64,000 nt of DNA from Bryobacterales bacterium (GCA_963838455.1 CAWISY010000142.1:21763-85762); one strand, 5' to 3'; positions 41,072-50,222 are shown, numbered from the stretch's first letter. The notes: generated by a model from the sequence alone, not told the origin. Numbers and translations are program-made.

Positions 41072-42340
41072 GTGTCTCCTTCCTGGCGCCGCTACATCCG
41101 CACGCAAGATTTCGTTTGGTTGCTACTGTTCGCCACCTTGATCGTGGTGGCCCGGGTCATGGTTCAACTGGGAACGGATCATCCTCCGGGAGCCGTGGTT
41201 CCCGCGCTGCTGGTGGTGATGTTCGTCAGCAAGGTGCTGGAATCGCGGATTGGCGCGATTCTGGCCATTATCATCGAACTGGCTCTGTCTTTCGGAATCA
41301 TTTGGGATAGCGGCAACATCGAGAGCACCTTTTATCTGCTCCCGCTGCTTCCCGTAATTTCCGCCGCAACCAACTTCGGACTTCGCGGGACCGTGCTGTC
41401 CGTGCTGGCGGCCTGCGGCGTGGTTTACTCGCAGGTCATCTTCATCAGCGAGCAATACTACATTCCCAGGAACGCATATCCGGAGCTGATGCTCAAGCTG
41501 CTTTGGTTTCCGCTGGTGGGCTTTTCCACGTATCAGCTTGCCAAGGCGAATCGCGAAAAAACACTCAAGCTGGAGGCCAGCGCGAAGGAACTCGCCGAAG
41601 CCAATCAAAATCTCCAGGAAGCCGAAGCTGAGGTGCGCCGCTCGGAGCGCCTGGCTGCGCTGGGGCAATTGACCGCCGGACTGGCGCATGAGCTGCGCAA
41701 TCCGCTCGGCACCATGAAGAGCTCCGCGGAACTGCTGGGGCGGCAGGTGGCCAAGGAAAACGAAATCGCCAAAGAGATGGCCGGCTACATCGCGACGGAG
41801 GTCGACCGCACCAACTCTCTCATCACCCGCTTCCTCGATTTCGCCCGGCCCCAACATCTGCGGCTGGAAACCGGCGACATCACCGAGCTGCTCGATTCCG
41901 TCATTGCCCGGTTCGAGCGCGAGTCCGGCGCGGCAACCTCGGTTTCGGTTTACAAAAATTACTCGCCCGACGTCCCCAAGGTCGCCTTTGATGCGGAGCT
42001 GCTGGAGCGCGCGCTGCTGAACCTGGTGGTCAACGCCGCGCAAGCCAGTGCCGCCGGCTCCGTCGTGACGGTGAAGACCCGGGCCGTCGAAACCAGCACC
42101 GGGCCGGGCGTCGAGATCGCGGTGATCGACCGCGGCGCCGGCATCGACGCCAGGAATCTGGAGAGCATCTTCAATCCCTTCTTCACCACCAAGTCGAGCG
42201 GCGTCGGGCTGGGCCTGGCCATCGTTTCCAAAATCATCGACGAGCATGGAGGCCAGATCGCGGTGGAGAGCGCCGTGGGCGAAGGCAGCGTGTTTCGCGT
42301 TTATTTGCCGGCCGTGAGAGAGCCTGTCGTGAGAGAGTAA
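41072..42340 (+). CDS. sensor histidine kinase (membrane N-terminus, HisKA + HATPase_c)
   Basis: LGQLTAGLAHELRNPL H-box, N-box LLNLVVNAAQA, G-boxes DRGAGI and GVGLGLAI. GTG start. Confidence 0.85.
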   Translation: MSPSWRRYIRTQDFVWLLLFATLIVVARVMVQLGTDHPPGAVVPALLVVMFVSKVLESRIGAILAIIIELALSFGIIWDSGNIESTFYLLPLLPVISAATNFGLRGTVLSVLAACGVVYSQVIFISEQYYIPRNAYPELMLKLLWFPLVGFSTYQLAKANREKTLKLEASAKELAEANQNLQEAEAEVRRSERLAALGQLTAGLAHELRNPLGTMKSSAELLGRQVAKENEIAKEMAGYIATEVDRTNSLITRFLDFARPQHLRLETGDITELLDSVIARFERESGAATSVSVYKNYSPDVPKVAFDAELLERALLNLVVNAAQASAAGSVVTVKTRAVETSTGPGVEIAVIDRGAGIDARNLESIFNPFFTTKSSGVGLGLAIVSKIIDEHGGQIAVESAVGEGSVFRVYLPAVREPVVRE

Positions 42341-42351
42341 AAGAAGAACGA

Positions 42352-43683
42352 ATGTCCGTAATCCTGGTTATCGAAGACGAAGAGAAGTATCGCCGCGTGA
42401 TTAGCCTGCACTTGTCCTCGGTGGGTTACGAAGTCAAAGCCGCGGGTTCCGCCGAGGAGGGTTTGAAACACGCCGGAGATGCCGATCTGGTCCTGACCGA
42501 TCTCAAGCTGCCGGGCATGGACGGCCTCGCCTTCCTGGAACAACTGCGCGCGCAGAACATGCTGACGCCGGTCATCGTGATGTCGGCCTTCGGCACCGTC
42601 GAAATCGCGGTCGAGGCGATGAAGAAGGGTGCCGTCGATTTTCTCCCCAAGCCGTTTTCGCTGGACCATCTCACCGTGGTGGTGGAAAAGGCCCTGGAAG
42701 TCCGCCGCCTGCGCGATGAAAATCGCGAGCTGCGCGAGGCCCTGGGCGAGAAATATCAGTTCGAGAACATCATCGGACACAGCGCCGCGATGCAGGAGAT
42801 CTTCTCGACCGTCACGCGCGTCGCGCCCACCCGCGCCACCGTCCTGCTGGGCGGAGAAAGCGGCGTCGGCAAGGATATGATCGCGCGCGCGATCCATCAA
42901 CACTCCCCGCGCAAGGACCGCCCCTTCGTCAAGATCAACTGCGCCGCGCTGCCCGAAAATCTGATGGAAAGCGAGCTGTTCGGCTACGAAAAGGGCGCCT
43001 TCACCGGAGCCAACATCTCCAAGCCCGGCAAATTCGAAGCCGCCAACACCGGCACCGTTTTTCTGGATGAAATCGGCGACGTGCCGCTGGCCATTCAAGT
43101 CAAACTGCTGCGCGTTTTGCAGGAGCGTGAGTTTGAGCGGCTGGGCTCCAACCGGGTTCTGCACGTCGACGTGCGCGTAGTCGCGGCCACCAACGTCGAT
43201 CTGCGCGAGGCGCTGGAGCAGGGGACTTTCCGCGAGGATCTCTACTACCGCCTCAACGTCGTCAGCATCAACATCCCGCCCCTGCGCGAACGCAAGGAAG
43301 ACATCCCCTACCTGGTCGATCACTTCGCCGAAAAATTCGGCGGCAAATTCACGGAAGCCGCAGTCGAGCGATTGTTGGCGTACCATTGGCCGGGCAACGT
43401 CCGCGAGCTGGAAAACGTGGTCGAGCGCAGCGTGCTGCTGGCCCCGTCGGGCGGACAAGTGGATGCCGCCGATATCCGCATCGACACCGCCCAGCGCTCC
43501 CGCCCCGCCGCCGCGACCGCCGACGGCTTTCTTCCCGAAGGCATGACGCTGGATCAATTCGAGCAGCACCTGATCCGCGAGGCCCTGAAGCGAGCCAACG
43601 GCAACAAGAGCCACGCCGCGCGGCTTCTCGGCCTCACCCGCAACGCGTTACGCTACCGGCTTACGCAGATGGGGATTGAGTGA
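42352..43683 (+). CDS. sigma54-dependent response regulator (NtrC family)
   Basis: Receiver (LVLTDLKLPGMDG), AAA+ (GESGVGKD, GAFTGA, ESELFGYEKGAFTGA) and a C-terminal Fis-type HTH (AARLLGLTRNALRYRL). Confidence 0.9.
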   Translation: MSVILVIEDEEKYRRVISLHLSSVGYEVKAAGSAEEGLKHAGDADLVLTDLKLPGMDGLAFLEQLRAQNMLTPVIVMSAFGTVEIAVEAMKKGAVDFLPKPFSLDHLTVVVEKALEVRRLRDENRELREALGEKYQFENIIGHSAAMQEIFSTVTRVAPTRATVLLGGESGVGKDMIARAIHQHSPRKDRPFVKINCAALPENLMESELFGYEKGAFTGANISKPGKFEAANTGTVFLDEIGDVPLAIQVKLLRVLQEREFERLGSNRVLHVDVRVVAATNVDLREALEQGTFREDLYYRLNVVSINIPPLRERKEDIPYLVDHFAEKFGGKFTEAAVERLLAYHWPGNVRELENVVERSVLLAPSGGQVDAADIRIDTAQRSRPAAATADGFLPEGMTLDQFEQHLIREALKRANGNKSHAARLLGLTRNALRYRLTQMGIE

Positions 43684-43704
43684 AGCCGTGTGCGGTTTAC
43701 AATA

Positions 43705-44296
43705 GTGCAGGGCACTCGGAGGGACGACGGACTACCAACACGACGTTTTCTTCAGCTATAAGCGGCACAGCTTAACGCTTGAGTGGACCCGAAGGGTCCA
43801 CGGTCAATTGCAATTCTGGCTCTCGCAAGAACTGGGCCGAGAGGCAAATGTGTTCGTCGACGAGGAGAGCATTGAAACCGGCGAGCGATGGCCAGCGCGC
43901 CTGAAGGACGGACTGCGCCATTCGCGTTGTATGGTTTCGGTCTGGTCGCCTTCATACTTCAACTCAGCTTGGTGCATGTCGGAGTGGAGAAGCTTCCGCA
44001 AACGGGAAGACGCCATAGGCCTCAAATCCCATGGTCTCATCGCGCCAATGCGGTTCGGCGACGGAGAGTTTTTCCCAGAGGAGGCTCGGTCAGTTCAATG
44101 GACTGATGTCGCACCCTACACGTCGCTACTGCCAGCGTTTTGGACAAGCCATCGCGCGCTTGAACTCGAAGATCGCCTTAAGGAATTCGCAATGGCTGTG
44201 GCCAAAATCGTCGCCAGCGCGCCAACGTTTCAAGACTGGCCAATTGTGGAAGCGCCCGGCTTGGCTCTGGCCAGGATTGGGCTGGCCAAACTATGA
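43705..44296 (+). CDS. TIR-domain protein (start unresolved)
   Basis: Frame open from 43706. Translation HDVFFSYKRH...VFVDEESIETGERW...MVSVWSPSYFNSAWCMSEW carries TIR beta-A, BB-loop and alpha-C Glu hallmarks. The first canonical in-frame start is TTG 43808, which would delete beta-A. GTG 43705 is one base out of frame. Confidence 0.7.
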
Positions 44297-45957
44297 CCAC
44301 TCCGATCCGTCAGAAGGAGCCCGGGATCGTTTACACGTTTTATTCGTTCAAGGGTGGCGTGGGGCGCACCATGGCGCTGGCCAACGTCGCAGCTTTGCTC
44401 GCCGAATGGGGTCATTCGGTCCTCGTCGTCGACTGGGATATCGAGGCGCCGGGACTGGAACGCTTCTTCGACGCGATGAAGCCCGGCATCCGGAGGGTTC
44501 GCTCCGAGGTACCGGGAATCGTAGATCTAGTCGACGCGAAGCGGACACCCACGGAGCTGGATTGGCGACGTTGCCTTATCGACATTAGGCCCGGACGGCT
44601 CGCGCTGATATCCGCTGGTCAGAATGGCCAACCCTACACATCCCGCCTTCACGCAATCAACTTCAACGAGCTCTTCGAGAATTATGACCTCGGGGCTTAC
44701 ATAGAGAAGCTCAGGAACGAGTGGATCTCCGAATACGACTTTGTCCTCGTGGATAGCCGCACCGGCTTCACGGACATCGGGGGTATCTGCACGGTCCATC
44801 TCGCCGATGTCCTTGTCCTCCTGTTCACCACAACGGAGTCAAGCGTAGGCGGCGCCTTGTCCGTCCTGGAGCGGGCCAGAACCGCACAAGAGCACCTCCC
44901 CGTAGATCGACGCCGGCTTCTTGCCGTGCCTGTGCCGGCAAGAGACGAGAGCCGGACCGAATACTTGAGAGCAGCTGGCTGGAAAAGAGAGTTTGCTAGC
45001 CGTTTCACTGAACTGTATCGAGACTGGCTGCCAAGCGCCGTCACTCCAGAAGAAGCGGTCGAGCGTTTGCGCATACCCTACATTCCTTACTGGAGCTTTG
45101 GCGAACGCTTGCCGGCGATCGAAGAGTCCACAAACGATCCCGCAAGCTTGGGCCACGCATATGAGATCCTTGCCCGCCTCCTCGCCGCACGACTGGACTG
45201 GTCGGCAGCCCTGCAGGGCGAGGCCGCCGCTCCGCCGCCCATGCCGCGGAGGTCGCCAAATGAGGATTGGTTGACCCGCCACCGGACAGCCGCAGCCGAA
45301 GGGCTCGCGATGGCAATGCTGACCGGCTTTATCGAGGTGTTACACTTCTCACCGGACTCGCCAATCTCCAAGGGCCAAGCCGATCTATTGACCGCTGCAA
45401 GGCAGGCGCAAGTCCAGCAGCACGGGAGACCGACTGGGATGGTTCTGGACGGGGTGGATTCGCCGAGGGCGATGAACGACGGCATTGTCGCGAACATCTC
45501 GAACTTCGGAACATTCGAGTATTGGGCCTTGGCCAGGAATGGCGACTTCTACTCCCTAATGTCGCTGGACGATGATATTTCGGAGGAACCAGGCCGCTAC
45601 ATTCGAATTGACCGAAGCATCCTACGGGCGACGGAAACGCTAATGCACTGCGGAAGGTTGTATAAGCTCCTCGGCGTGCCCCCACACGCCCATGTGGAGA
45701 TCTCGCTTCGTTATGGCGGGATTGATGGGCGCGTTCTTCGAGTTGGAGAACGCTCGGGCTGGACTCCGGAGCCGCCTCGCGCGATCGAAGAGGAGGCCGT
45801 CATCCCCATTGTCTCCTTCACGCTCGCGGAGCTGGATGACCGGATTGTTCAACTTGTCAAAGCGCTCTGCGAGCCGCTCTTTGTTCTCTTCAATTTCGTC
45901 AGCGTTAGCGATCAGCGCTACTCGGCAATCGTGAGCAACATCTTCGCCGGGAAGTAG
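44293..45957 (+). CDS. ParA/MinD-like (SIMIBI) ATPase with variant P-loop KGGVGRT and uncharacterised C-terminal domain
   Basis: FYSFKGGVGRTMALANVA, VLVVDWDIEAPG and DFVLVDSRTG, then ~230 aa with no recognised motif. ATG overlaps the TIR stop (ATGA at 44293-44296). Confidence 0.8.
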   Translation: MTTPIRQKEPGIVYTFYSFKGGVGRTMALANVAALLAEWGHSVLVVDWDIEAPGLERFFDAMKPGIRRVRSEVPGIVDLVDAKRTPTELDWRRCLIDIRPGRLALISAGQNGQPYTSRLHAINFNELFENYDLGAYIEKLRNEWISEYDFVLVDSRTGFTDIGGICTVHLADVLVLLFTTTESSVGGALSVLERARTAQEHLPVDRRRLLAVPVPARDESRTEYLRAAGWKREFASRFTELYRDWLPSAVTPEEAVERLRIPYIPYWSFGERLPAIEESTNDPASLGHAYEILARLLAARLDWSAALQGEAAAPPPMPRRSPNEDWLTRHRTAAAEGLAMAMLTGFIEVLHFSPDSPISKGQADLLTAARQAQVQQHGRPTGMVLDGVDSPRAMNDGIVANISNFGTFEYWALARNGDFYSLMSLDDDISEEPGRYIRIDRSILRATETLMHCGRLYKLLGVPPHAHVEISLRYGGIDGRVLRVGERSGWTPEPPRAIEEEAVIPIVSFTLAELDDRIVQLVKALCEPLFVLFNFVSVSDQRYSAIVSNIFAGK

Positions 45958-45970
45958 ATTCGGCCAAGCT

Positions 45971-46903
45971 TTACATCTTGGACTTGATCACGTCCACCAG
46001 TTCCTGCACCGCGCCCGCGCTCTTCTTCAACGCCGCGGACTCTTCTTCGGTGAGCTTGATCTCGTAGATGTGCTCGATGCCCTTGGCGCCCAGCTTCACC
46101 GGTACGCCGACGAACAATCCCTTGATGCCGTATTCGCCTTCCAGGTACGCCGAGCAGGGCAGAATCTTTTTCTTGTCCTTGAGAATCGACTCCACCATTT
46201 CCACCGCCGCGGCCGAAGGAGCGTAATAGGCGCTGCCGGTCTTCAGATGCTTCACGATCTCCGCGCCGCCGTTGGCTGTGCGCGTCACGATGGCATCCAG
46301 TTTGTCTTTCGGAATCAGCTCAGTCAACGGAATGCCCGACACGTTGGATAGACGCACCACCGGAACCATCGTGTCGCCGTGCCCGCCCAGCACCACCGCG
46401 GTCACATTCTCCACCGATACATTCAGTTCCGCCGCAATGAACGTGCGGAAGCGGGCCGAATCCAGCACGCCAGCCATGCCGATCACGCGATGCCTGGGGA
46501 ATTTGGAAACTTCGTGTGCGGTCCAGCACATCGCGTCCAGCGGGTTGGTCACCAGCACCAGAATCGCGTGGGGCGAATGCTTGGCGATGTTTTCGGTGAC
46601 GCTCTTGACCACCGCGTAATTGGCCAGCAGCAGGTCGTCGCGGCTCATGCCCGGCTTGCGAGCCAGACCCGCGGTGATCACCACCACGTCCGAATTCGCC
46701 GTCGGCTCATAATCGTTGGCGCCGGTGATCGAGACATCGTAGCCCTCGATCGGCCCCATCTGGAGCATATCCAGCCCCTTACCCTGCGGAACTCCTTCCA
46801 CTACGTCGACGAGAACAACGTCGCCGAGCTCTTTCATGGCGAGGTTGGCAGCGCAGCTCGCGCCGACATGGCCTCCGCCCACAACGGTAATTTTTTTGCG
46901 CAT
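45971..46903 (-). CDS. mdh: malate dehydrogenase (LDH-like family)
   Basis: [18 protein letters not shown]..., [28 protein letters not shown]. Confidence 0.95.
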
Positions 46904-46931: not shown

Positions 46932-49900
46932 CTAGAAGACGTACTTCATCGCCAGTTGCATGATCCGCGGCGGACCGGCGCTGGTGATCTGGCCGAACAG
47001 CGGACTGTTCATGGTCAGAATGGGCGCGCCGAGGTTGGTGTGATTCAGCGCATTCTCGGCTTCAATGCGCACCTCCAGCGTCTGTTTCTCGCGCACCGGA
47101 AAGATTCGCGACAAGCCCGCATTGACCAGCAGCATAGCCGGCCCAAGAATCGTGCCCGGACCCGTGTTGCCGTAGGTAAACGGCGTGGGAAACGCGAAGG
47201 CGTTGGGATTGATCCAGTCCGCGGCGGTTCCGTTGCCATAGACGTTCAGCAGCACCTGCTTGGGCCGCTGCCCGCCCACGCCGGAGTAGGCGTTATCCTC
47301 GCCGGTGGTGACCGTATAAAACGCGCCGGATTGCAGCGTCGATGCGGCGCCCAGCCTCCAGCCGCTGACGAGCCGCCGCATCCAGGTGTTCGAAAATTGC
47401 GGCATCGCCGCGATCCCGAACAAATTCGCCATCTGCCGCCGGTCCGTTCCGGAGGTGTTGCAGTTGCCCCGGTCCAATTGCCTTCCCGGGAAAATGTACA
47501 CCTCGCTCCCGCCCGTGCCCGCATTCAACAGCGTGTTGACGGGATCGCTGATGCAGTGCGAATACGTGTAGTTGGCGTTGAACGTCAAACCGCGGCTGAC
47601 GCGCTTCTGCGCCGTCAGCAGCATACCGTTGTAACTGCCGGTTCCGCTGTCGTCCCAGGTGTCGACAAAGCCGAAGTACTTTCCATATGCCGGGTCAAGC
47701 TGGCTGAGCAAGCGCCGCTCATTGGTGGTGGTCAGCAGGCACGTCGCATCGTTGGCAGGGCAGGTTCCCGCGCCGCTGGCCGGATTCAGCTCCCGCGCGC
47801 CCATCAGATGGATCATCTCATTGCCCAGATACCCGGCTCGCAGCAGCCAGTCGTTGCCGAACTGCCGCTCCACGCTCACGTTCCACTGTTCGACGTAGGG
47901 CGGGTGGGTGTCGTAGTTGAAAGTGTTATAGGTTCCATACAGCGAATACGGTGAGCCCGCATTAAACGTCAATGGAAAGGGATTCCCTCCCGTCTCGCCC
48001 GCGAACGGATTCGCCAGCCCGCCCGGAGGATCGGTCAAAGTGGTGCGATCGCCCCAGGGCGGCGCGGTGGTGGTGTTGAGGTTGTACTGCACCGGAACGT
48101 TGTCGTAGAAGATGCCGTAAGCCGCCCGCACCGACATTTTCCCGTTCCCTTTCGGATCCCACACAATCCCGATGCGCGGCGCGAACTGGTTCCATTGCCG
48201 GTCCATACCCCGGTCGCCCGGAAATCCCGGATCGCCGGGATAAAACAACCCCGGTGGGGCGTTGGCGAACTGCTGGGTGTGGGTCCCGTTCAGAAACGAC
48301 GGCAGATCGAAATGATAGATCTGGCCGTTGACGATGCTCATGGGAATGAACGGCTCCCACCGCAACCCATAGGTCACCGTGATTCCCGGCCGCAGCTTCC
48401 ATGTGTCTTGCGCGTAGGTGCTGACGTACCAGTCGTGCACCAACAGCGTGTTGGGCGCGGCCTCCGTCAGGCTGGAGAGGTTGCCGGTGAAGAAATCGGC
48501 CAGCGCGAATCCCGTGTATCCTTGGCCGGTGAAAGAGAGCTGCCCCATGGAAAGCGTGTTGGCGTACGTGTTCGAGTCCCAGTGGGAGATGTTGGCGCCG
48601 AACGCCATCTGGTGATTGCCAAGGACGATTCCGAAATCATCGCTGGTCTGCAGCGTGGTGGTGCGGTAGGTAGCTGCGCTGGCCGTGGGCGACCCGATCG
48701 AAAAATACGGAGCGGGCAGCGACAGGCTGGTGAAATTCGGAAGATAGCTGTAGATGTTAATCCCCACCGATTGCGGCCCGAGGAACGACGGAGCTGTGCG
48801 CGCGATCGCCGTGCGATCCACCGTGGCGCGGAAGTTGTTCACAATCGAGCCGCGAATCAAATACGTCTCGCCGAGCGTGAAGGATTGATCGAAGTCGTTG
48901 TATCCGGCGGCCGAGGTCGCCAGCAGATTGTGGCTCAAATTGTACGGCGCCGGCTCTTCGTCCTGCGTGCCCAGATAGCGCGCAAACAGCGTGTGCACCT
49001 TGCTCAGCGCGTAATCGATCCTGCTCATGCCAAAGTGTTCATCGTCCTGCGTCGGCAGCCCGTATGTCGTCTCCCCGCACTGCTGATCCTGCGGCACTGG
49101 GAGTTTGGCCGCGATCGCCAACGCGATCGGCGAAAGCTGCGTCAGCGGAATCATGTTTCCCGGGAACGGAGCCAGTTCCGGCGCCGTCAGCGGATTCTTC
49201 AGCGTGATCGCCGCCGCCTGACACGTCTTCGACGTAACCACGCTGAAATTGCCCGCCTCTTCCTGCGCCGTAGGAACGTAGGAGATGGTCGCGTTAGGGC
49301 TCTGCCGCGTGTCGGTCTGCTGGTACGCCGCAAAAAAGAACAGAGTGTTCTTGCGAACAGGTCCGCCCAGAATTCCTCCGAACTGATTCCGCTTCAGCGA
49401 ATCCAGAGTGGTCGAAAAAACCTGGCGGGCATCCAAGTGGAAGTTGCGGAAGAATTCGAAAGCGGCTCCGTGCCATTCATTGCCGCCGGATTTGGTCACG
49501 GCGTTTACCGCCGCGGCCGAATGCATCCCGTACTCCGCCTGCAGCGCACCCATCTCCACCTTGAACTCCTGCATCGCGTCGGGAAACGGCAGCGGGAGAC
49601 TGGCGTTGGTGTAAACGTCGGTGTACATCGAGCCATCCAAAAGATACGTGGTTCCGGTGGCAAGCCCCCCGGCGACTGAATACGACTCGATGTTGGGATA
49701 GTTGCGGCTGGAGATCTGGTTCGGATCGCTCCCCGACGGCGCCGCGCCCGCCAATCCGATCAAATCCGCCACATCGCGCCCGATCAGCGGCAGGTCCACG
49801 ATGTTCTGATGATCGATCACCGTGCCCACGCCGGAGTTCTGCGTTTCCACCATGGAGGTGTTTCCTTCCACCTCCACCGTGTCGGTGGGCTGGCCCACAT

Positions 49901-50222
49901 CGAGAAAAACTTCAATGGTGGGATTGGTGGCCACTTGCAGCGTGATGCCGGTTTGCAGATAGTCGGCAAAACCCTGCTTGGTCACTTCCAATTGATACGG
50001 ACCGGCCGGCAGGTTGGTCAACAAATACGCGCCCTGCGTATCGGTGGTGGTGGAGCGCACCGCGCCGGTTGCCGTCTGCGTCAGCTTCACGGCCGCGGTC
50101 GGCACCGGCAATCCTCCTTGATCGACCACGGTCCCCTTGATCTGGGAGTTGGAAACCGCCTGGGGCCACACCTCGCCGCCACCGATCAAGAAAACCAAAA
50201 CCGCCCATCGCAAGCGTCTCAA
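46932..50222 (-). CDS. TonB-dependent receptor-like outer-membrane protein with CarboxypepD_reg N-terminal domain
   Basis: 1096 aa. IKGTVVDQGGLPVPTAAVKLT...YLLTNLPAGPYQLEV, a plug region, a long beta-barrel and the terminal ...MKYVF. Confidence 0.85.
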   Translation of the reverse strand: MRRLRWAVLVFLIGGGEVWPQAVSNSQIKGTVVDQGGLPVPTAAVKLTQTATGAVRSTTTDTQGAYLLTNLPAGPYQLEVTKQGFADYLQTGITLQVATNPTIEVFLDVGQPTDTVEVEGNTSMVETQNSGVGTVIDHQNIVDLPLIGRDVADLIGLAGAAPSGSDPNQISSRNYPNIESYSVAGGLATGTTYLLDGSMYTDVYTNASLPLPFPDAMQEFKVEMGALQAEYGMHSAAAVNAVTKSGGNEWHGAAFEFFRNFHLDARQVFSTTLDSLKRNQFGGILGGPVRKNTLFFFAAYQQTDTRQSPNATISYVPTAQEEAGNFSVVTSKTCQAAAITLKNPLTAPELAPFPGNMIPLTQLSPIALAIAAKLPVPQDQQCGETTYGLPTQDDEHFGMSRIDYALSKVHTLFARYLGTQDEEPAPYNLSHNLLATSAAGYNDFDQSFTLGETYLIRGSIVNNFRATVDRTAIARTAPSFLGPQSVGINIYSYLPNFTSLSLPAPYFSIGSPTASAATYRTTTLQTSDDFGIVLGNHQMAFGANISHWDSNTYANTLSMGQLSFTGQGYTGFALADFFTGNLSSLTEAAPNTLLVHDWYVSTYAQDTWKLRPGITVTYGLRWEPFIPMSIVNGQIYHFDLPSFLNGTHTQQFANAPPGLFYPGDPGFPGDRGMDRQWNQFAPRIGIVWDPKGNGKMSVRAAYGIFYDNVPVQYNLNTTTAPPWGDRTTLTDPPGGLANPFAGETGGNPFPLTFNAGSPYSLYGTYNTFNYDTHPPYVEQWNVSVERQFGNDWLLRAGYLGNEMIHLMGARELNPASGAGTCPANDATCLLTTTNERRLLSQLDPAYGKYFGFVDTWDDSGTGSYNGMLLTAQKRVSRGLTFNANYTYSHCISDPVNTLLNAGTGGSEVYIFPGRQLDRGNCNTSGTDRRQMANLFGIAAMPQFSNTWMRRLVSGWRLGAASTLQSGAFYTVTTGEDNAYSGVGGQRPKQVLLNVYGNGTAADWINPNAFAFPTPFTYGNTGPGTILGPAMLLVNAGLSRIFPVREKQTLEVRIEAENALNHTNLGAPILTMNSPLFGQITSAGPPRIMQLAMKYVF

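Follow-up and report, generated by a model that had tools for sequence, protein, structure and literature searches.

TIR-based immunity is common to bacteria, plants and animals. To our knowledge, the well-studied TIR systems all make use of STAND, Argonaute, cyclase or SIR2/SLOG partners. Here we describe a 2.3-kb cassette of two plus-strand reading frames, a TIR frame followed by the gene for a 554-amino-acid (aa) MinD/ParA-like ATPase, located at positions 43,705–45,957 of a 64,000-nucleotide (nt) stretch of DNA from a Bryobacterales bacterium (GCA_963838455.1 CAWISY010000142.1:21763-85762). The whole of this stretch is called the window, and coordinates are counted from its first letter. 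On balance, we favour reading the pair as a self-contained two-gene conflict or anti-phage cassette, in which a TIR effector, a ParA-like switch and an exchangeable sensor tail would act together. Judged from sequence comparison, the two-gene family appears well supported and widely distributed, and the copy in the window itself is probably not expressed.

The closest published description is that of Kaur et al. (2020, eLife, PMC7159879), who listed 'inactive MinD/ParA-like' domains among cell-division-related effector domains. This article was also the sole relevant find when the literature was searched for a TIR protein paired with a KGGVGR, ParA, MinD, CbiA or SIMIBI protein; no paper on such a pair was found, and no description of the cassette was found in the article's main text. 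Although the article gives no motif, the domain of Kaur et al. is most likely of the KGGVGR type. The systems share a SIMIBI domain of the MinD/ParA family, the companions TIR, AP-ATPase/STAND, TPR, vWA, FGE-sulfatase (FGS), GUN4 and kinase, and an enrichment in Actinomycetota, Cyanobacteriota and Myxococcota. They differ in that the domain is described there in vWA-MoxR (VMAP) ternary or FxSxx peptide-processing systems, whereas here it belongs to a two-gene unit with an obligate 5' TIR gene. Neither the checked neighbours in the window nor the recurrent flank families included MoxR, vWA-partner, peptidase or radical-SAM genes, and membership in VMAP was rejected because no gene for a MoxR or vWA component adjoins the cassette in these two sets.

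Two profile collections also contain part of the system. The NCBIfam model AAA_KGGVGR (NF047398) matched residues 13–194 of the ATPase with 142.4 bits and a relative at locus L052 with 153 bits, against a cut-off of 90. However, this is a domain model that names no system, partner or function, and the cassette ATPase extends beyond it by about 120 more conserved residues, including the motifs PARDESRTE and PYxPxWSFGE, and by its obligate TIR partner. The PADLOC model PDC-M28B recognized the NTPase core of the ATPase (E 8e-26) and of every branch tested (E 1e-20 to 9e-30), but the match spans only about positions 130–368 of the 438 in the profile and leaves the C-terminal domain uncovered. PDC-M28 is a candidate system; its PDC-M28A models did not match the cassette proteins, and no publication on it was found in the searchable literature. 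The domain type was foreshadowed by NF047398, by PDC-M28B and by the article of Kaur et al. The pair, for which the initial annotation had known of no characterised system, matched no named system in PADLOC, NCBIfam or the searchable literature.

More than 2,800 homologues of the ATPase were found. The best 120 were 426–597 aa long, most of them covered at least 92% of the query, and the few organism names given among them pointed to Acidobacteria. In genomic contexts with precomputed Pfam annotation, a TIR gene of 191–201 aa lay directly 5' of the ATPase gene at several different chromosomal positions. We then scanned one genome per species, which gave 53 loci, and located the TIR with hidden Markov models (HMMs) built from window-type proteins. 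Since the scan patterns came from motifs of this subfamily, the statement on the pair covers this KGGVGR subfamily rather than all KGGVGR ATPases. An orthologous TIR frame was present directly 5' of the ATPase in 52 of the 53 loci, the exception being a contig that ends 160 nt 5' of the ATPase. The carriers belong to about ten phyla: Acidobacteriota, Pseudomonadota (Rhizobium, Agrobacterium, Paraburkholderia, Nevskia), Bacteroidota, Chloroflexota, Desulfobacterota, Binatota, Cyanobacteriota, Myxococcota, Actinomycetota and Eremiobacterota. Cultured carriers include Archangium violaceum, Rhizobium mongolense, Agrobacterium, Paraburkholderia and Agaribacillus.

The distance between the stop codon of the TIR frame and the start codon of the ATPase gene was -4 to +3 nt in 45 of 52 loci; 30 of the 52 showed an ATGA overlap and eight a 1-nt overlap. 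In the window, the ATGA was read at 44293–44296, exactly where the initial annotation had placed it. The two genes are therefore a conserved, translationally coupled pair, and the synteny that had been put forward as a check on the original proposal holds in 52 of 53 loci. When the TIR was used in a word-indexed homologue search for TIR-ATPase fusions, only close stand-alone TIRs were retrieved. A conserved third gene was not found, as no flank family occurred in more than seven of 55 loci. The families that did recur (in up to seven of 55 loci) were two-component or sigma54-regulator genes and relatives of a 1096-aa open reading frame (ORF) of the window, which we take to be abundant paralogues. 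Genes of 254 and 265 aa lie 3' of the cassette in L002 and L004 and were rejected as a third component, because they are related neither to one another nor to the ATPase's C-terminal domain; neither gave a significant Pfam match or any PADLOC match. Carriage by viruses was likewise rejected: IMG/VR holds only distant KGGVGR ATPases without a TIR partner. These are proteins of 620–1100 aa on contigs L066–L071, with an identity of 32–37% over their first 200–290 residues.

The TIR frame (43706..44296, plus strand, as for all cassette features) comprises 196 codons and a TGA stop. It matched Pfam TIR_2 (PF13676) with 61 bits against a cut-off of 28 (E 2e-16), so the TIR assignment made from motifs alone is borne out by the profile. 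Y18, D52, Y84, S87, C90 and E93 never vary among the 49 partner TIRs compared, and W89 is found in 98% of them. Conservation of at least 90% was seen at 25 positions of this set, and the window TIR keeps every one of them. E93 (codon 43982..43984) lies in the motif Y-F-x-S-x-W-C-x-x-E at the catalytic position and is kept in 49 of 49 partner TIRs. It is established that a Glu of the TIR alpha-C region is catalytic in the TIR NADases of plants and of SARM1. When the family TIR profile was aligned with the plant TIRs AT1G72930, SNC1, RPV1 and Roq1, YFxSxWCxxE fell on their SxWCLxEL. By this alignment, the Glu that had been assigned to the NADase catalytic position does correspond to the catalytic Glu of the plant enzymes. 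The gene 1 product is taken to be a small TIR enzyme and a putative NAD+-cleaving effector.

Matches of the TIR to the models of named systems were weak. In PADLOC, the window TIR gave only weak matches to PDC-S66, ThsB and TIR-Argonaute-associated models. These scores bear on a Thoeris-like mode of action, in which the TIR, instead of killing through NAD+ depletion, would make a nucleotide signal of the cyclic ADP-ribose isomer or His-ADPR type for an unlinked effector, and the ParA-like protein would sense the cue and switch the TIR on. Partner TIRs do match the ThsB and ThcB4 models weakly, one branch carries a ThsB-like second TIR (E 6e-38), and ThsA and ThsB are among the nearest neighbours of one locus. 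However, the pair has no conserved neighbour of the ThsA-like, SLOG, SIR2, Macro or any other receptor-effector kind, given that no flank family exceeds seven of 55 loci, and no such gene lies within about 13 kb in the window. The scores also fall far below the Thoeris cut-offs (for example, 30.7 against 220). We consider such signalling improbable. Assignment to Thoeris itself was rejected on similar grounds (ThcB4 30.7 against 220, ThsB1 E 0.014, and no ThsA-like gene in the cassette or the window).

Gene 2 runs from an ATG at 44293 to 45957 and encodes 554 aa, as predicted at the outset. According to the ORF, the profiles and an AlphaFold2 model (mean pLDDT 83), it consists of an NTPase domain (about aa 1–310), a linker and a C-terminal domain. 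Besides passing the NCBIfam KGGVGR model, it scored above the thresholds of Pfam CbiA and AAA_31, and the profiles thereby confirm the assignment on the ATPase side as well. It remained far below the cut-offs of the equivalog models (minD_bact 30.7 against 212.9, ParA_partition 22.5 against 180). A Foldseek search with the model of the N-domain returned MinD, Soj, FleN, FlhG and ParA structures (1hyq, 1wcv, 2bej, 3q9l) with E values of about 1e-7 to 1e-8 and target TM scores of 0.6–0.78. The initial annotation had proposed a SIMIBI/ParA-type core; the MinD/Soj fold agrees with this, but the protein is not a canonical ParA, since Arg25 replaces the P-loop Lys in 51 of 51 N-domains. In canonical ParA/MinD proteins, the P-loop reads KGGxGK[ST], and its second Lys contacts the phosphates.

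The variant Walker A motif, K20-G-G-V-G-R25-T26 (44350..44370), aligns with KGGVGKT of Aquifex MinD (4v03). It is followed by a switch-I-like D47-W-D49 (44431..44439), which aligns with DADIG of MinD, and by the Walker B region FVLVD154SRTG (44740..44766), which aligns with YILVDSPAG. K20, G21, G22, G24, R25, D47, D49, D154, R156, T157 and G158 are invariant in 51 of 51 ATPase N-domains. This invariance of the nucleotide pocket, together with the fixed Arg, argues for a functional variant nucleotide site rather than a decayed one. We take the KGGVGR domain to bind ATP, to hydrolyse little or none of it, and to dimerize or oligomerize depending on the nucleotide. A further loop, P262-Y-I-P-Y-W-S-F-G-E271 (45076..45105), is specific to the family, with at least 95% conservation in the 51 loci compared, which represent about ten phyla. 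AlphaFold2 gives it the lowest confidence in the whole model (pLDDT below 50 at residues 266–271), and it may serve to dock the TIR or form an interface with a partner or within a dimer.

The fixed Arg can also be read differently. PMC7159879 lists MinD/ParA-like domains as division-related effectors predicted to be inactive, and the replacement of the P-loop Lys in all 51 members would suit a domain that is itself the effector, poisoning cell division or the partition of chromosomes or plasmids, with the TIR and the C-terminal module as regulators or sensors. Against this, K20, G21, G22, G24, D47, D49 and D154 are invariant across about ten phyla, unlike in a decayed, inactive domain, and the ATPase domain sits between an enzyme encoded in trans and an exchangeable tail, which is where a switch or adaptor would be placed. 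Moreover, the same tail is fused directly to classical enzymatic effectors, MinD-like domains being only one of several partners. An effector role for the ParA-like domain thus seems slightly less probable still than Thoeris-like signalling.

The C-terminal domain of gene 2 (aa 319–554, 236 aa; 45247..45954) is the candidate sensor module, with no detectable solved structural relative. The initial annotation had recognized nothing in about 230 aa of this protein, and the databases agree: Pfam and NCBIfam profiles did not match the domain, and Foldseek gave nothing significant in PDB or BFVD, the best PDB hits being faint TBP-like matches (E 0.025, TM at most 0.3). Modelled alone with AlphaFold2, the domain reached a pLDDT of 94.6 and a pTM of 0.92. 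E348, R480 and a C526-E-P-L-F motif are conserved. A search of 1.84 billion representative proteins gave 524 matches at E of at most 1e-3, and in nearly all of the 150 matches listed the window-type tail stands at the C-terminus. In 149 tail-bearing representatives, the N-terminal partners were TIR_2 (21), SEFIR (11), TIR (8), RelA_SpoT (4), MinD-like (4), a CAP12/Pycsar-type TIR (4), nucleoside deoxyribosyltransferase-like (3) and protein kinase (2), with GGDEF, SIR2_2, ThsB_TIR, Schlafen-AlbA and HipA-N occurring once each. Because it is found with this set of enzymatic domains, we read the module as a likely sensor or regulator, and it deserves its own family definition.

The exchange also occurs in the other direction. 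The ATPase N-domain of about 310 aa takes different tails by lineage, the window-type domain being present in 25 loci. Some lineages have a second TIR instead, either by itself or combined with TPR, CarboxypepD_reg or a STAND/AAA_35 module; others have NACHT with FGE-sulfatase, vWA, GUN4, or Sel1 with ankyrin repeats. Modular C-termini of this kind fit the architecture suggested at first, a sensor or switch ATPase that would gate a TIR effector.

The observations on which a mechanism can be built are the synteny of the two genes, their coupling, the conservation of catalytic and nucleotide-pocket residues, the modular C-termini and the accessory status of the cassette, which is described below. 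From them we propose that the TIR is a NADase, that assembly depends on ATP, that the tail is a sensor and that the cassette has a defence phenotype. The stop/start coupling would yield both proteins in a fixed ratio. In the resting state, the ATPase would keep the TIR apart or inactive. When a cue meets the C-terminal module, the ParA-like domains would assemble and so gather the TIR domains into the oligomer required for activity; depletion of NAD+ would then stop the growth of the infected cell.

The window copy departs from the family at its 5' end. The initial annotation listed a gene of about 195 aa with 43705 as its first position. An open frame does follow an in-frame TAG, from 43706 on, but a normally initiated gene of 195 aa could not be demonstrated. 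No ATG, GTG, TTG, CTG or ATN codon occurs in the 34 codons between 43706 and 43807. As the first canonical start is a TTG at codon 35 (43808..43810), the beta-A strand, with its motif DVFFSY (residues 13–18; 43742..43759), lies 5' of any usable start, and a product initiated at the TTG would lack beta-A and most of alpha-A. Homologous TIR genes open with MPGGxxDYxHDVFFSY, and in nearly all loci a canonical start precedes beta-A by 5–10 codons. At the site of the relatives' ATG, the window reads GG-GCACTC, compared to GGAATGCAT in relatives; in a longer alignment of the start region, the window has GG-GCACTCGGAGGG and L001 has GGAATGCATGGAGGG (80% identical).

An assembly error as the cause of the start loss was ruled out by two independent short-read Logan assemblies from different runs (L006 and L007), which carry the same sequence as the window with 2–3 single-nucleotide differences over 2.8 kb. 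Because their start region is identical, the open frame without a start is real; gene callers annotate only a 148-aa fragment in both. The cassette is otherwise intact: at the 25 TIR and 70 ATPase positions where the family shows at least 90% conservation, the window copy has the conserved residue throughout. The ATPase gene has no obvious ribosome-binding site of its own when read from the sequence, and because its start leans on the ATGA overlap, the ATPase may be poorly translated too. Considering that the full TIR lacks a usable start and the ATPase an obvious ribosome-binding site, we regard the window cassette as likely to be a recently silenced allele.

It is rather unlikely, though well worth weighing, that the window TIR is still made, at very low dosage, through non-canonical initiation or read-through of the TAG at 43703–43705, which closes a GTG mini-frame opening at 43688, and that the cassette is functional. 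In favour of this, the 25 TIR and 70 ATPase residues mentioned above are intact, and a GGAGGG lies directly 5' of ACG ACG at 43724–43729. A second lineage without a start, L074, occupies the same slot, and its TIR frame is in frame with the TAG stop of the upstream regulator gene. Compared with L074, the window has a dN/dS of about 0.04 over the segment that precedes its first start codon, versus about 0.06 over the remainder. At three other loci, ATC or ATT replaces the relatives' ATG. However, there is not a single NTG or ATN codon among the 34 codons 5' of the TTG at 43808, and nonsense or frameshift changes have clearly disabled other members of the family. The dN/dS values were rejected as a test for selection after the loss, because dS is saturated and the values are therefore silent on timing; the low ratio would stem mainly from the time before the start was lost. 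The losses in the window and in L074 also look independent, because their structures differ. Silencing of the window copy therefore remains our preferred explanation.

L074 (215–350) itself has a TIR that is 84% identical to that of the window. The frame directly follows the regulator's TAG stop in the same frame and has no start codon; the intergenic region and the promoter-like site are deleted, and read-through would yield a regulator-TIR fusion. The three loci with altered starts are from Bryobacteraceae, and their TIR 5' ends (L009:2974-, L010:7420-, L031:7408-) carry ATC or ATT exactly at the relatives' ATG position. In L010 and L031, a short in-frame mini-frame with a start and a stop is located just 5' of the TIR, like the GTG at 43688 and the TAG at 43703 in the window. 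Such starts and mini-frames could mean that weak initiation has been favoured by selection in a toxic gene, or that the gene is in an early stage of decay. L076:1-110 is a plain nonsense allele, with TGA for the codon of the conserved Trp38 (TGG to TGA; ...LQL*VQEE... versus ...LQFWLSQE...). Split TIR or ATPase frames were seen in L009, L027, L060 and L075; some come from long-read assemblies and may be errors. Our reading of these alleles is a recurrent inactivation or down-tuning of a costly gene. More speculatively, the start is repeatedly weakened or removed, by ATC or ATT, by its loss or by an in-frame TAG, and effector dosage or dependence on read-through might be part of the regulation.

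The window cassette is set between two core genes, the stop of a sigma54-type response regulator (42352..43683, plus strand) and the convergent stop of the malate dehydrogenase gene mdh (45971..46903, minus strand). Both are ORF calls outside the cassette and form the edges of a variable slot. These flanks were as the initial annotation gave them, and the motifs it quoted were all found in the frames named, with HDVFFSYKRH, VFVDEESIETGERW and VSVWSPSYFNSAWCMSEW in the TIR frame and SFKGGVGRT, VVDWDIEAPG and FVLVDSRTG in gene 2. The cassette occupies the same slot in L001, L002 and L074. In close relatives, other cargo stands between the same flanks: L072 contains two hypothetical genes and a BrnA antitoxin, and L073 IS3-type transposase genes. 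The flanks of these two loci share 79–83% nt identity with the window in the regulator gene and 83% in mdh (94% aa), and no TIR or ATPase remnant was found in their slots. The gap between the regulator gene and mdh (window 43684-43706 and 45958-45970; L072:7934-10378; L073:7933-11472) is therefore a small variable hotspot with the cassette as one alternative cargo, and the cassette is accessory.

This location bears on a non-immune role, housekeeping or regulatory (NAD-linked regulation or the positioning of structures), that would be tied functionally to the sigma54 two-component system. A histidine kinase gene and the gene of its neighbouring sigma54-dependent regulator (window 41072–43683) lie co-oriented and directly 5' of the cassette, and their position is kept in L001, L002 and L074. 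The neighbours are housekeeping genes, and the GC content equals that of the surroundings. However, the linkage to the regulator is confined to one clade, with different flanks elsewhere, and close relatives have the regulator and mdh without the cassette. The patchy distribution across phyla, the immune-type C-termini and the frequency of inactivated copies also speak against such a role, which we consider very unlikely. A sigma54-type promoter was not recognized by eye 5' of the TIR frame.

The remaining features of the locus are few. A promoter-like site, TTGAGT-16-TACAAT (43676..43703, plus strand), has 9 of 12 matches; shuffled sequences yield 0.9 sites on average, which makes it weak evidence. 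Its -10-like box aligns with TAGAAT in L001. At the cassette, neither a GC anomaly nor a terminator-like site was detected, and a search for terminal direct or inverted repeats around it gave only matches of chance length. As stated in the initial annotation, the cassette stands isolated: no tRNA was found in the window, and the checked neighbours within about 13 kb were of the housekeeping type. The ORFs of at least 250 aa scanned in this range encode an M24 peptidase, ornithine cyclodeaminase, MFS transporters, aconitase, GT2, IF3, DUF3738, a multicopper oxidase and FeoB. The 1096-aa ORF adjoining mdh (46932–50222, minus strand) looks, by its sequence, like an outer-membrane protein of the CarboxypepD_reg/TonB-dependent-receptor type, which is typical of Acidobacteria. 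Large ORFs related to it flank the cassette in several other loci, probably owing to the abundance of this family in these genomes.

At other loci, defence genes do occur nearby. Among 101 nearest-neighbour ORFs, PADLOC gave single strong matches to ThsA (1e-183), ThsB (8e-135), a type I restriction endonuclease (2e-121), a CBASS phospholipase effector, mad6 and GajB. Locus L062 has a CAP12-type TIR gene that adjoins the cassette, as well as a metallophosphatase and a SNF2/SWIM helicase; L052 has a PT-DNA restriction-like protein and a HerA/FtsK-like ATPase. On a plasmid of Sinorhizobium chiapasense (NZ_CP133151), a UvrD helicase and three additional TIR genes are found no more than 8 kb from the cassette. 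There, the TIR partner (L061:7367-7993) is annotated in RefSeq as a hypothetical protein of 106 aa, although the frame is open for 208 codons, and the ATPase-TIR fusion beside it is named only 'TIR domain-containing protein'. For enrichment in defence islands, a further point of the original proposal, the evidence is only anecdotal: defence neighbours are present at some loci, and the window cassette stands alone between core genes.

Several points weigh against an immune cassette with a ParA-like switch that is silenced in the window. The domains of this kind in conflict systems are treated in PMC7159879 as inactive and effector-class, not as switches, and the change from Lys to Arg in the P-loop may abolish nucleotide-dependent behaviour. 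The surroundings of the cassette in the window, L001 and L064 are housekeeping genes and not a defence island; the defence neighbourhood elsewhere, counted without a background set, is suggestive only; and no close family members were found on viral contigs. As to the window copy, its TIR keeps every conserved residue with an N-terminal dN/dS of about 0.04 relative to the start-less L074, and some unconventional expression of the TIR may occur.

We also compared the pair with other systems that contain a TIR. Among curated TIR models, FxsC scores best with every partner TIR that was tested (about 51–57 bits); the window TIR reached 56.6 bits with FxsC_Nterm (NF040588). Membership in an FxSxx-COOH system was nevertheless rejected, as the score is under the cut-off of 130 and no FxsA or FxsB is found among the neighbours of the window or L052 cassettes. 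CBASS, Pycsar and SPARTA were rejected because neither protein gave such a match in PADLOC and no third gene is conserved; unlike SPARTA and Thoeris, the cassette has no Argonaute, ThsA or cyclase partner. A STAND or NLR-type system (Avs, bNACHT, TIR-NLR) was rejected in view of the SIMIBI fold and the lack of a STAND match, the TIR-NLR model matching with E 0.05 on the TIR only. NACHT or STAND modules do occur in the ATPase tails of some other branches.

The window-type tail invites a second comparison, with the CapRel-type RelA/SpoT toxins, which we take to be fused effector-sensor abortive-infection proteins. As in these, the tail is C-terminal behind RelA_SpoT, TIR, SIR2 or kinase domains in single chains. 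Unlike in these, the enzyme of the window is on a separate polypeptide, a ParA-like domain is interposed, and the tail has no detectable similarity to solved sensor domains. Because it is found with many different immune effectors, the 236-aa domain is a candidate for a broadly used sensor, and its model predicts a new fold with confidence.

The closest parallel in logic is provided by TIR-STAND/Avs proteins, bacterial NACHT proteins and plant TNLs, which likewise combine a TIR effector, a nucleotide-binding switch and a variable sensor; the TIRs of plant TNLs are also the closest to the SxWCxxE motif of the cassette TIR. The difference is that the switch of the cassette has a SIMIBI MinD/ParA fold rather than a STAND/AAA+ fold, and that the effector is encoded in trans. 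More tentatively than the cassette itself, we therefore propose a possible new class of prokaryotic immune receptor, in which a SIMIBI switch with a fixed Lys-to-Arg P-loop would take the place of the STAND NTPase and link an exchangeable sensor to a trans-encoded, coupled TIR. The acidobacterial branch would then carry a new sensor fold common to single-chain TIR, SEFIR, SIR2 and RelA/SpoT defences. If this is true, the ParA/MinD-fold switch is a new mechanistic solution for effector-switch-sensor logic, and the widespread KGGVGR 'variant ATPase' domain, now annotated without a role, acquires a function. The cassette is tractable, with 2.3 kb and carriers among cultured strains. For this genome, the meaning is more modest, since the copy, which occupies a variable slot flanked by core genes, is probably a silenced allele. 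Taken as a whole, the pair would follow the logic of TIR effector, NTPase switch and sensor that is already known from these systems; what is new is the type of switch and the tail domain.

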